Source of the DNA: a virus
Virus record (IMG/VR): IMGVR_UViG_3300023179_000020
Reading direction: 5' to 3' (one strand)
Length of the DNA: 64,000 nt
Of this stretch, positions 14,963-53,323 are shown piece by piece. Each line of letters starts with the position of its first letter. The stretch's first letter is position 1. The position numbers were made by a program, and so were the translations under genes. The notes beneath the pieces are model-generated. The model ran no database searches. It worked only from the letters and a program-made list of their open reading frames with translations, and was not told where the DNA came from.

Positions 14963-15015
14963 TATTTATAATAAGAAATTTGGCTTAGTCAAGTTTTGTT
15001 ATTATATTTATTAGA

Positions 15016-31564: not shown

Positions 31565-31597
31565 TAAAAAACAACATATTTATAAACAAAATTAAAA

Positions 31598-32044: not shown

Positions 32045-32078
32045 CACATATTTATAAACAAATAAAAACCAAAATAAA

Positions 32079-32729
32079 ATGCAAGTAGAAAAATTACGTA
32101 CTCTTATAAGAGAATCTATCAACGAATATATTAGAGAAATTGAACAAGCAGCTAATGAAGCAGCTGTAGATGCTAGTATCACTAAATGTGAAGAAGCAAT
32201 CCAATCACGTCAAGAAAGACTAAATAAGATTAATGAAAATGATGATCTTAAAGAAATGGTTGATGAAACTAAAGTAAAAAATATTCAAGCCGAAATTAAA
32301 ATTTTAGAGAAAGCTAAGAAAAAATACGCTGCTCAAAAAGCTAAAATGCAAGCTAAAAAGGATAAAAAAGCAAATCCTGAAAAAGAAGTAACTACTGATG
32401 CTCCTATTGATGAAGCTGATGTAACAGCTGAAATGAACATGCCTGACAATACACAAGAAGAAGCATTAAACGAATCTTTTATTCGTATGCAAAAACTTGC
32501 AGGTATTATTAATGAAAATAAAAGTAAAATAGAAACAATTTTGAGTAAAATAGGTGATATTGAAGAAAAAATATATGATCAATATGGTGACGATGAAATA
32601 GAAGCTAAATTTGATTATAGTAAAGCTATAGATGATATTAAATCAAAATATAAAAATGACGAAAGTGGAATGTATGATGCTTTAATATCTCATTTAAAAA
32701 AACTAAAATCAACATTCCCAATAAAATAA
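32079..32729 (+). CDS. Coiled-coil protein carrying both leader types
   Basis: N-terminal KLRTLIRESINE; internal LNESFIRMQKLAGIINE. Confidence 0.65.
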   Translation: MQVEKLRTLIRESINEYIREIEQAANEAAVDASITKCEEAIQSRQERLNKINENDDLKEMVDETKVKNIQAEIKILEKAKKKYAAQKAKMQAKKDKKANPEKEVTTDAPIDEADVTAEMNMPDNTQEEALNESFIRMQKLAGIINENKSKIETILSKIGDIEEKIYDQYGDDEIEAKFDYSKAIDDIKSKYKNDESGMYDALISHLKKLKSTFPIK

Positions 32730-32734
32730 AATAA

Positions 32735-32818
32735 GGTACTAGAAAAGAATTTGAAAATAAATTCAATCTAAATGGTGGGAGACTTAGTCAACTAATTAAT
32801 AATAAAATATTAAAATAA
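32735..32818 (+). pseudogene. Possible remnant of a homing-endonuclease C-terminal HTH domain
   Basis: Start-less frame GTRKEFENKFNLNGGRLSQLINNKILK* in intergenic DNA. Confidence 0.3.
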
Positions 32819-32825
32819 ACATATA

Positions 32826-32904
32826 GACCGATTCATAGCCGGTCGCTCTAAACAGAGACAAAAATATGGTAGCTGTGGCACTCCTAAAAAGGTGCCACTT
32901 TTTT
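32826..32904 (+). ncRNA. Candidate structured RNA: H-type pseudoknot overlapping an intrinsic terminator
   Basis: GACCG/CGGTC stem; loop CATAGC pairs with GCTGTG (32872-32877); terminator GTGGCAC/GTGCCAC + T-tract. Confidence 0.45.
32875..32904 (+). terminator. Intrinsic terminator
   Basis: GTGGCAC(32875-32881)/GTGCCAC(32892-32898) followed by TTTTTT. Confidence 0.75.
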
Positions 32905-32905
32905 G

Positions 32906-32936
32906 TTTGTTTTTTAAATAAAATTTATTATCTTTA
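32906..32936 (+). promoter_or_regulatory. Bacteroidota-type sigma70 promoter (-33/-7)
   Basis: TTTG(32906-32909)-N19-TATCTTTA(32929-32936), one mismatch to TAnnTTTG, 4 nt before the ATG at 32941. Confidence 0.55.
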
Positions 32937-32940
32937 GAAT

Positions 32941-34248
32941 ATGAAAAATAAAAAAATAGTAATTGTAGGAGCAGGTGTAGCAGGCATTAATGCCGCGACA
33001 AAATTAGTAGATAATGGCTACCCAGGTGAGTTAATCACTATTATTGATAAAGGAAATGATCCACACAATCGTTTACCTGAGGAAGTAATGACAGGTATGT
33101 TAGGTGCTGGTGGTTGGAGTGATGGTAAATTAACATATCACACTGCAATTGGAGGTGTATTATCAAAGTATTGTGGTGAAGAGAAAGCAATGGAATTGAT
33201 GGATCAAGTCATTAATAACTTTAGACGTTTCCATCCTAAACCAGAAGAAATATTTTGCTCTGACCCACAATCAGAACCTGAATTTATTAAACCATATTTT
33301 GGTTTACGTTTATTTCCTGTATGGCATATTGGTTCAAATTATCTTCACGAGATTGCTAAAGCATGGTATCAATATTTAGTGGATAAAGGTGTTAGATTTG
33401 AATGGGAAACAGAAGTAGAGGACATTGATTTTAATAATAATAAAGTTTATACTCATAATACTACATTACAATATGATTCTTTAATATTTGCTGTAGGTAA
33501 AAGTGGTATTGACTTTGCTCAATCATTATCAAACCAATACCAACTACCTACAGAACCAAAATCAGTACAAATTGGAGTCCGTTACGAGGCACCACAAAAA
33601 TACTTTCAAAAACTAATTGATATCAGTTATGATTTTAAACTATACCAAAAGTTTGATAATGTATCGTTAAGATCATTTTGTACTAATAATAACGCAGCTT
33701 ACGTCGCAGTAGAGGAAACATATGGTGACATTAGTTACAATGGTCATGCTAAAAAAGGTGAAGAATTTAAAAACGATATGACCAACTTTGGTATCCTAAT
33801 GGAAATTAAAGGTATTGAAAATCCATTTGAATGGAGTAGAGAAATAGTTAAGAAGTGTCAATTTGATTTACCCGTAGCTAAAAAATCTGGTTTATATTAT
33901 TCACCTAATTTAACTCGAAAACCAAGTTTAACATCAGAAAATAATACAGTCGATAGTTATCAAATCGTTGAGTTAAGCTGGTTTAAAGACGCATTTAGTG
34001 AATATGCCGATTATATTCTTAATTTTATCGACCAAATGAATGAAGTATTTGAATTTGGTGATGATTGGGGTATGTATATTCCTGAAGTAAAATATGTCTC
34101 TGCAGAGCCTCTTGTTAACTATGATGATTTAAGTCTTACAACATACAACAATATTCATTTTGCCGGAGACGCTTTATCAGCTAGAGGTATAACAGTAGCA
34201 GGCAGTCAAGGTATTTACATTGCTGAAGGTATTTTAAAAAAAATGTAA
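32941..34248 (+). CDS. FAD-dependent oxidoreductase (HI0933/YhiN-like)
   Basis: Rossmann IVIVGAGVAG, GAGGWSDGKL, RSFCTN, NGHA, C-terminal FAGD...RGI..AG..G. Confidence 0.8.
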   Translation: MKNKKIVIVGAGVAGINAATKLVDNGYPGELITIIDKGNDPHNRLPEEVMTGMLGAGGWSDGKLTYHTAIGGVLSKYCGEEKAMELMDQVINNFRRFHPKPEEIFCSDPQSEPEFIKPYFGLRLFPVWHIGSNYLHEIAKAWYQYLVDKGVRFEWETEVEDIDFNNNKVYTHNTTLQYDSLIFAVGKSGIDFAQSLSNQYQLPTEPKSVQIGVRYEAPQKYFQKLIDISYDFKLYQKFDNVSLRSFCTNNNAAYVAVEETYGDISYNGHAKKGEEFKNDMTNFGILMEIKGIENPFEWSREIVKKCQFDLPVAKKSGLYYSPNLTRKPSLTSENNTVDSYQIVELSWFKDAFSEYADYILNFIDQMNEVFEFGDDWGMYIPEVKYVSAEPLVNYDDLSLTTYNNIHFAGDALSARGITVAGSQGIYIAEGILKKM

Positions 34249-34277
34249 GTATTTAATTTCTGGTGATATTTATAATT

Positions 34278-34886
34278 ATGAAATATTATGTATATCATTG
34301 GATTAGAAAAGATACTAATAAACCTTTTTATGTAGGAAAAGGAACAGGTAATAGAGCAGGTCATAAAAAATCAAATAAAGGATGGAAAAATATTACTTCT
34401 AAAGTTGAATGCTTTTGGGAAATTATTAAGTATTTTGATGATGAACAAACCGCATATCTATATGAACATACTCTTATTGAAGAATATAAAAAATTAGGGT
34501 ACAAAATAATTAATCAAACTAAATATTCTAAAGGTGGAGGTACTTGGGCATATACTGATGAAGTAAAACAACGTCAAAGTGAAAATAGAAAAGGTAAAGG
34601 TTTAGGACCTCGAAGTAAAGAATGGAAGCAAAATATTAGTAAAGCAAACAAAGGTAGAAATATATTATGGGCTAATAAAATAGGGGATGCCCTTAGAGGA
34701 AAACCTAAAAATTATTTAAGTCACCATAAACCAATACTCCAATATGATCTTCAAGGTAATCTACTTAATGAATACCAGTCAGCACAAGAAGCAGGTAGAT
34801 GTCTAAATAAATCAGGTAATCAAATAGCAGATTGCGCCTCAGGTAGGCAAAAAACCGCTTATGGTTATATTTGGAAATATATATAA
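34278..34886 (+). CDS. Freestanding GIY-YIG homing endonuclease (NUMOD)
   Basis: YYVY...PFYVGKG...RA, E..LI, N; C-terminal ILQYDLQGN...KTAYGYIW. Start reassigned to ATG 34278. Confidence 0.8.
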   Translation: MKYYVYHWIRKDTNKPFYVGKGTGNRAGHKKSNKGWKNITSKVECFWEIIKYFDDEQTAYLYEHTLIEEYKKLGYKIINQTKYSKGGGTWAYTDEVKQRQSENRKGKGLGPRSKEWKQNISKANKGRNILWANKIGDALRGKPKNYLSHHKPILQYDLQGNLLNEYQSAQEAGRCLNKSGNQIADCASGRQKTAYGYIWKYI

Positions 34887-35152: not shown

Positions 35153-35203
35153 TTTTTTTTTGATATTTATAATAAAATATACTAATTTAAAAAATAAAAG
35201 ACA

Positions 35204-35683: not shown

Positions 35684-35702
35684 AAAACAGTATTTTAAAT
35701 TA

Positions 35703-35736
35703 GGCTTGGGAAACCAGGCCTTTTTTATTATATTAC
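35703..35736 (+). promoter_or_regulatory. GAAA-tetraloop terminator overlapping a TTG-N20-TATATTAC promoter-like element
   Basis: GGCTTGG-GAAA-CCAGGCC-TTTTTT; TTG at 35706, TATATTAC at 35729. Confidence 0.55.
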
Positions 35737-35740
35737 TAAT

Positions 35741-40611: not shown

Positions 40612-40649
40612 CATTTCATACATATTTATAACTAAAATATTAGCCAAGA

Positions 40650-43882: not shown

Positions 43883-43932
43883 TCCAACGTATTCTTTCAA
43901 AATCTTTGACATATTTATAATAAAATATAGAT

Positions 43933-50518: not shown

Positions 50519-50555
50519 CAAAACAATATATTTATAAATAAAACAAAATAATAGT

Positions 50556-53246: not shown

Positions 53247-53265
53247 TAAAATAAACATAACAATA

Positions 53266-53296
53266 AGAAGACCCAATTTAGGGTCTTCTGTTTTCT
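53266..53296 (+). terminator. Probable intrinsic terminator
   Basis: AGAAGACCC/GGGTCTTCT stem followed by GTTTTCT. Confidence 0.65.
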
Positions 53297-53301
53297 CTTA
53301 A

Positions 53302-53309
53302 TATTTATA
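53302..53309 (+). promoter_or_regulatory. TATTTATA late-promoter-like motif before the neck gene
   Basis: Follows a terminator, 14 nt before the ATG at 53324. Confidence 0.65.
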
Positions 53310-53323
53310 AACAAACTCTATTC

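Follow-up and report, generated by a model that had tools for sequence, protein, structure and literature searches.

In the preQ1-I and SAM-II aptamers, which are compact RNAs, a short linker of fixed length lines a groove, while the ZTP riboswitch is made up of two sub-domains that are joined by a variable linker. A different kind of module is known from the T4-like phages, where the PeSL cassettes, consisting of a stem-loop terminator followed by a promoter, occupy the borders of gene cassettes; they occur in many repeats per genome and carry no extra conserved domain. In the guanidine-IV riboswitch (mepA motif) a kissing loop stabilised by the ligand blocks the completion of the terminator and gives read-through, thus the RNA functions as an ON switch (PMC11611296).

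The element described here lies in a 64,000-nt stretch of viral DNA (IMG/VR record IMGVR_UViG_3300023179_000020; the whole stretch is called the window below), and the logic nearest to it among the known systems is that of guanidine-IV, since in both RNAs two hairpins with kissing loops compete with a terminator. There are nevertheless clear differences. The element has no sequence or covariance-model match to guanidine-IV (the mepA model is assumed to be part of Rfam 15) and its loop sequences are different; the guanidine-IV terminator is an extension of the second hairpin, whereas in our element a separate hairpin reuses the loop and the 3' strand of hairpin P3; furthermore, guanidine-IV precedes genes of guanidine exporters or of the MATE type, and here the gene is that of an FAD oxidoreductase.

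A preliminary description of the locus had compared it with the ZTP (pfl) and fluoride (crcB) switches, and this comparison is useful as far as the ON-switch logic is concerned: in all of them the 3' strand of the pseudoknot overlaps the 5' arm of the terminator, and two sub-domains with a variable linker between them are a further feature in common with ZTP. The helices, the conserved nucleotides and the gene context are different, however, no Rfam match was obtained, and the kissing-loop antiterminator of guanidine-IV is closer in its logic. The suggested likeness to preQ1-I and SAM-II, namely a hairpin loop that pairs with a downstream strand past an A-rich segment, had to be given up, since the linker of the element is long and variable and can hold a hairpin, the 3' strand sits in a hairpin loop of its own, and neither family was matched in Rfam. 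As in the PeSL cassettes, the terminator stands directly before a promoter-like motif and partial copies flank inserted genes; unlike them, the element is single-copy and possesses a covarying kissing-loop domain.

No known family had been recognised in the locus, and the database searches agree with this. Rfam 15 gave no match at the gathering threshold in the whole window, and no plus-strand match overlapping the fold was obtained between 32600 and 33100 at E values up to 10, where a plant microRNA precursor model, covering the terminator and the start of the gene, was the only plus-strand row (13.8 bits; its gathering score is 85). Sixteen diverse copies compared with Rfam at E values up to 5 yielded no match on the element, and literature searches found no description of the motif. 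To our knowledge few structured regulatory RNAs that are the phages' own have been described, and orphan riboswitch candidates seldom show covariation of such clarity.

The phage locus and its relatives

The long open reading frames of the window are all on the plus strand and tightly packed, and 3' of the element PHROGs matches were obtained for the large terminase, the portal protein, the head protease, the major head protein and PhoH. By its large terminase (60% identity) the nearest cultured relative is the 160-kb Flavobacterium phage vB_FspM_immuto, which is absent among the oxidoreductase matches listed (48 records, all of them Campylobacter phages or unnamed bacteriophage records). The DNA of the window was recovered in lake-water metagenomes, and there are related contigs, rated complete, with lengths of up to 160-180 kb. 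No near-identical DNA was found among the GenBank phages, and a search of the window for tRNA and tmRNA genes gave none. The window reads as part of an uncultured myophage, the host of which was probably a member of the Bacteroidota.

The gene behind the element codes for a COG2509-like protein in which Pfam and NCBIfam matched little beyond the Rossmann N-terminus. Its AF2 model has a pLDDT of 87.8 and resembles best, within the PDB, the uncharacterised VP0956 (3nlc, TM 0.71); the cellular look-alikes carry PF21688. The predicted protein is a Rossmann-type flavoprotein, and the searches in Pfam, NCBIfam, PHROGs, the PDB (by sequence and by fold) and the ESM Atlas lead no further than "uncharacterised FAD-dependent protein". 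Since the function of the enzyme is uncharacterised, no ligand can be argued from a pathway.

Relatives of the locus were collected in several ways. The search anchored on the protein, with the downstream reading frame as query, yielded 80 IMG/VR loci of 75-86% identity, about three quarters of which contain the element, either directly 5' of the gene or about 0.6 kb 5' of it with one extra gene between them. A pattern scan independent of the protein returned at least 120 contigs, and the covariance model built from 132 distinct copies (alignment A2) recovered divergent copies that lie outside the regular-expression matches. About 170 copies from these searches were examined; conserved copies of the structured RNA, which occupies 32815-32912 in the window, are present in more than 170 related contigs of phages, and it is abundant in viromes from lakes and the sea.

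When the pattern scan was extended to bacterial genomes at least 120 matches were obtained, and among the 80 loci scored by the covariance model only L255 (56.6 bits) and L256 (50.0 bits) reached strong scores; by our own estimate nearly all of these bacterial matches are due to chance. Both of the high-scoring loci contain the element and are filed in genome_contigs under a Microbacteriaceae MAG (L255) and a Gammaproteobacteria MAG (L256), where it is followed by the start of the oxidoreductase gene and of a Pyr_excise-like gene, respectively. Both have the appearance of phage contigs that ended up in MAG bins, and their labels should not be taken as hosts.

The covariance model detects exactly one copy in each of five phage records of 136-180 kb, four of which are rated complete. 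All copies are on the coding strand, and the position upstream of the oxidoreductase gene, first reported for the window, is a general one: 172 of the 174 occurrences are followed by the gene on the same strand, at a distance of at most 200 nt in 133 and behind one to three inserted genes in 39, while in the remaining two the available DNA ends before the gene. The genes 5' of the element are unrelated between the loci, and the element is always found where variable genes border on the conserved one. In 49 of the 137 distinct contexts the upstream reading frame has its stop codon at a distance of exactly 6 nt from P1, and in 79 the distance is not more than 10 nt; in the relatives the TAA of the conserved 5' flank is very often this stop codon, and TAA was noticed to be the upstream stop codon in 133 of the 137 (L001-L200). 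In the window the upstream frame ends at 32729, which leaves a gap of 96 nt to P1. A ribosome terminating 6 nt before P1 would cover the 5' arm of this hairpin, and in this way the fold could be influenced by translation of the gene before it. A stop-codon readthrough or frameshift signal was also considered and rejected, since the frame past the stop codon is closed in relatives, e.g. in L010.

The inserted genes belong to GIY-YIG-type endonucleases, recognised by their N-terminal motifs, and most often to pyrimidine-dimer glycosylases of two lineages. Glycosylase genes of the Pyr_excise type (Pfam) stand between the element and the oxidoreductase gene in L004, L008, L060, L088, L164 and about 15 more loci; the two lineages occupy the same slot, and in one of them the glycosylase gene ends in an overlap with the start codon of the oxidoreductase gene. 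This neighbourhood hints at a functional link of the flavoenzyme to the repair of UV damage. Partial copies consisting of the flank, P1 and part of the linker were seen at L080:3446-3505, L208:796-850 and L255:3952-4006, in each case as the left border of an extra gene that has the complete element on its right, and the genes seem to have been inserted by recombination within the element. In three other loci the element is broken within or just after the kissing strand and is continued by other sequence (L034:3328-3399, L048:919-981, and L094 at 1013-1053 on the minus strand); in L094 a GIY-YIG endonuclease gene comes after the replacing sequence. The invariant loop DNA may be a homing site.

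Helices, loop-loop pairing and the overlapping terminator

The coordinates of the features in the window are collected in Table 1. The hairpin P1, the complementarity of its loop to a downstream strand, the small hairpin, the A-rich linker and the terminator were all found where the preliminary description had placed them. It had taken the fold for a pseudoknot: the pairing of the loop with the downstream strand stands, but a third helix, P3, had been overlooked. The pairing of the two 9-nt loops is, as read from the aligned copies, an intramolecular kissing complex, and in the window its helix consists of 6 bp with one G-U pair. Across the relatives P1 has 5-6 bp and P3 has 3-4 bp, and the element comprises about 60-75 nt in addition to the terminator. 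The P1 loop invariably begins with AUU. On inspection of the variants, P2 is a stem of 3-4 bp with a GNRA tetraloop in many relatives, and in others this region is only an A/U-rich linker. RNAfold applied to 32730-32945 returned P1, the small hairpin and the terminator. An extension of P1 into the 5' flank was also looked for, and on inspection the pairing was not consistent.

Table 1. Positions of the element and of the neighbouring features in the window
Feature	Position	Strand	Description
Conserved 5' flank	32815-32825	+	consensus TAA-YWTWYA, then the G that opens P1; columns 3-12 of A2 conserved
P1 hairpin	32826-32844	+	5-bp stem 32826-30/32840-44, 9-nt loop 32831-39
Loop-loop (kissing) helix, 5' strand	32834-32839	+	within P1 loop; partner 32872-77
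P2, optional small hairpin in the linker	32846-32857	+	4 bp (32846-49/32854-57), 4-nt loop
A/U-rich linker	32858-32867	+	length and sequence variable among relatives (A2, A4)
P3 hairpin	32868-32882	+	3-bp stem 32868-70/32880-82 (one G-U in the window), conserved 9-nt loop 32871-79
Loop-loop helix, 3' strand	32872-32877	+	within P3 loop; 32875-77 are the first three bases of the terminator 5' arm
Intrinsic terminator	32875-32912	+	stem 32875-82/32891-98, then six T; T-rich tail 32899-32912
Promoter-like bipartite motif (putative)	32906-32936	+	TTTG 32906-09, 19-nt spacer, 8-nt TA-nn-TTT-A box 32929-36
FAD-dependent oxidoreductase gene, COG2509-like	32941-34248	+	435 aa
10-nt A/T box sites	31565-31597, 32045-32078, 35153-35203, 40612-40649, 43883-43932, 50519-50555, 53247-53323		

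The covariation of P1 and of the loop-loop helix, for which the preliminary description had asked, was found in the homologous regions. In the 132 distinct copies of A2, 97.9% of the cells are paired as compared with 82.9% in the shuffles, and changes on both sides occur at all pairs of P1 and at all pairs of P3. Since the loop sequences had been fixed by the pattern scan, the count was repeated on alignment A4, which holds 67 distinct rows taken from the protein-anchored loci only, with no sequence pattern imposed. Here 98.6% of the cells are paired (84.4% in the shuffles), with both-side changes at five of five P1 pairs, three of six loop-loop pairs and three of three P3 pairs, and none of the 500 shuffles matched the observed values of pairing and covariation. 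When the 3' partners were slid by 1-3 columns in A4 the pairing fell to 24-41%. Taken singly, the P1 pairs are formed in 99.4-99.7% of the cells and the loop-loop helix of A4 in 99.7%; one of the P3 pairs is composed of 72 GC, 37 CG, 14 UA and 5 AU, and the loop-loop helix exists in six distinct compensated variants. Joint alterations of P1 loop, kissing strand and terminator 3' arm were seen in the variant L206. The loop sequences are near-invariant although the oxidoreductases of the same contigs are only 56-88% identical, and in this they look like a candidate binding site.

The terminator consists in the window of a G+C-rich hairpin followed by a U-run, as is expected of an intrinsic (Rho-independent) terminator, and the terminator scan lists 32875-32898 plus the T-run; the two arms named in the preliminary description lie at 32875-81 and 32892-98. 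In 124 of the 151 distinct variants the stem has 6 bp or more with a U-run behind it. The competition of the two folds, which had been proposed from the overlap at 32875-77, is a recurrent feature of the variants: the 5' arm of the terminator shares 3-7 nt with the kissing strand in 137 of the 151 (3 nt in 59 variants, 4 nt in 13, and 6-7 nt in 65, where the whole kissing strand lies within the arm), 1-2 nt in 13 and none in a single one. In the variants inspected, though this was not tallied, the 3' strand of P3 is likewise within the terminator 5' arm. Since the terminator draws on nucleotides that also make up the loop-loop helix and P3, the two folds are mutually exclusive.

Additionally, the 5' strand of P3 mimics the 3' arm of the terminator in every variant type, and the segment 5' of the kissing strand covaries with the terminator 5' arm. 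This mimicry is not needed by the terminator, which argues that both alternative pairings are under selection. The nearest-neighbour energies in the window are -12.1 kcal/mol for the terminator, +2.3 for P3 alone and -7.8 for the loop-loop duplex; on this calculation the kissing state is predicted to be weaker than the terminator. The kissing-loop domain was not found at three other intergenic terminators, for which 20 kb were scanned. From the comparison of the copies it can be regarded as established that the element has three helices and paired loops, overlaps with the terminator, occurs once per genome and is linked to the gene.

A marine sub-lineage (L090, L115, L142, L172, L173, L199) has kept P1, P3, both loops and the promoter-like motif, and no convincing terminator hairpin was seen in these six variants. 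The retention of the domain in such terminator-poor variants suggests that it may act beyond the control of the terminator.

A promoter-like motif between the terminator and the gene

The sigma-A promoters of Bacteroidota have the consensus TTTG at -33 and TAnnTTTG at -7. A bipartite motif of this kind, the 8-nt box of which ends 4 nt before the ATG, is found 3' of the terminator, and we take it to be a putative -33/-7 promoter of the Bacteroidota type. The caveat of the preliminary description, that a separate promoter-like element lies downstream of the terminator, has thus gained weight: TTTG-N19/20-TAnnTT is present in 107 of the 143 distinct downstream regions, and in 5 in the shuffles. 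The spacer is 19 or 20 nt in all but one of the 107 motif-bearing regions, and at its 3' end the -7 box mostly reads AA or TA where the consensus has TG. In many relatives the motif overlaps the terminator, and in the marine variants inspected the TTTG is inside the terminator loop; the spacing between TTTG and the box is conserved, whereas their position relative to the hairpin is not. The oxidoreductase gene very probably has its own promoter. With a conserved promoter placed past the terminator and ahead of the gene, our element would stand at the 3' end of the upstream transcripts and would gate only the read-through.

As to transcription, assembled RNA-library contigs of two studies bridge the element and the start of the gene; one contig from a lake and several marine ones start in the element or more than 100 nt before the ATG and run into the gene. 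Positions 32874-32914 are not covered by the RNA-library contigs, a gap that is uninformative. The contigs agree with read-through transcripts, but they may be carry-over of DNA and display neither ends nor strand nor level, thus they give a weak hint.

The same layout as before the oxidoreductase gene, with a hairpin and T-run, then a TTATTATATTA-like box and an ATG 5-8 nt further on, was noticed at 14963-15015 and 35684-35740 of the window, where the kissing-loop domain is absent. So small a gap between box and ATG suggests leaderless or near-leaderless mRNAs. A different box, the 10-nt A/T sequence ATATTTATAA with its close variants, stands 15-25 nt 5' of many, mostly structural, genes and is probably the late-promoter motif of the phage, comparable to the late box of T4. 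Each of the two genes just 5' of the element in the window is preceded by this box.

Regulated switching and the alternative explanations

We lean to the reading that the element is a cis-acting RNA switch on an intrinsic terminator, in which the choice between the two folds is regulated. According to this model RNA polymerase would arrive from the upstream genes and P1 would fold first, followed by P3, the 9-nt loop of which would pair with the P1 loop over 6-7 bp. The kissing complex would hold 6 of the 8 nt of the terminator 5' arm, so that the terminator is blocked and the polymerase would continue into the oxidoreductase gene; should the complex fail to persist, the terminator, as the more stable fold, would form and the upstream transcripts would end at the T-run. 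Since the kissing state is calculated to be the weaker one, an effector, or a kinetic advantage, would be needed, which points to an ON switch; on the other hand, a kissing complex of 6-7 bp can be stable with Mg2+ alone, thus an effector might not be strictly required. The regulation of the fold choice, the direction of the switch and the effector are what we infer here. Such a switch would add or withhold the read-through from upstream, and the whole expression of the gene would not be under its control.

It is a tentative suggestion that the effector is a small molecule, in which case the element would be a true riboswitch; a protein, such as the oxidoreductase or an antiterminator of the phage, is a less probable effector. 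In common with riboswitches in general there is a conserved, covarying, aptamer-like domain, a variable expression platform and a consistent association with one gene. The element is, however, not a 5' leader with no promoter between it and the gene, and it speaks against the switch that a riboswitch leader is not normally bypassed by a conserved promoter. A slightly more doubtful form of the suggestion is that of a new riboswitch class confined to phages, where a kissing-loop aptamer would sense a small metabolite and turn on the read-through into the gene of the COG2509-like flavoenzyme, which in many relatives shares an operon with a pyrimidine-dimer glycosylase gene; the ligand of such a class could possibly be a flavin, a nucleotide-related or a damage-related compound.

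Alternatively, the element might be a passive module of the gene boundary which receives no signal, its terminator insulating the oxidoreductase promoter from upstream transcription and its kissing domain either setting a fixed efficiency of termination or shielding the 3' ends of the upstream mRNA from exonucleases. We consider this unlikely, though a serious rival, and several features fit it: the promoter-like motif comes directly after the terminator and overlaps it in many relatives, the element is always at the junction of variable and conserved genes with the upstream stop codon abutting, and the six marine variants keep the domain without a clear terminator. A fixed efficiency or a cap does not account, however, for near-invariant loops together with covarying stems, and the kept complementarity of both alternative partners of the terminator 5' arm would be left unexplained. 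Moreover, the other terminator-plus-promoter modules of the window do without the domain, and the terminator, once formed, buries most of the kissing strand, hence the domain could not cap the terminated RNA.

Improbable, and somewhat more so, is an operator recognised by protein, where a phage protein (the oxidoreductase regulating itself, or a dedicated antiterminator) would bind the kissing complex and no metabolite would be involved. The strict linkage to one gene, the single copy and the conserved loop sequences are compatible with this; the gene 32 of phage T4 regulates itself via a pseudoknot in its leader, and Rossmann-fold enzymes are recurrent RNA binders. Against it, no RNA-binding domain was found in the oxidoreductase by Pfam, NCBIfam and fold search, and no candidate partner protein came to light. 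The present data do not separate a protein from a small-molecule effector.

It is very improbable that the element works as DNA, i.e. as a target of recombination or of a homing endonuclease or as a palindrome bound by a transcription factor. The P1-only partial copies that flank inserted genes and the endonuclease genes that interrupt the element just past the kissing strand would suit such a site, but the stems vary in sequence without losing their complementarity, and covariation links two loops that are separated by 30-60 nt, whereas protein-binding DNA sites conserve sequence and not complementarity; besides, the copies all lie on the coding strand. A self-cleaving ribozyme with pistol-like topology, in which a hairpin loop is paired to an internal loop within a long-range helix, can hardly be upheld: the pistol ribozyme does have a 5-bp hairpin the loop of which forms a 6-bp pseudoknot after an A-rich linker, and in some freshwater variants the segment before the kissing strand can, on inspection, pair with the one after the GC hairpin, but this long-range helix was rejected since permuted partners pair at least as well (mean 4.66, as compared with 4.40 for the true ones), P3 covaries instead, neither pistol nor any other ribozyme was matched in Rfam at E values up to 10, and the strict linkage to one gene is atypical of ribozymes.

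The element is tied to one enzyme family, the function of which is uncharacterised in cells and phages alike; a ligand would point to this function. Should a ligand be found, it would define a new riboswitch class, give a clue to the COG2509/PF21688 flavoproteins and provide an example of a phage that senses the metabolism of its host at the level of transcription. If the element is dependent on a protein or is passive, it still represents a structured RNA that marks the border where gene cassettes are swapped.

Two minor observations concern the neighbouring genes. A homing endonuclease gene of the NUMOD1/HNH type lies directly 3' of the oxidoreductase gene (34263-34886 of the window). Furthermore, several unrelated upstream proteins have the end K/R-M-Q-K-I/L-A-G in common, which was seen in L025, L031, L045, L052 and L055 and, in the window, at 32466-32516.
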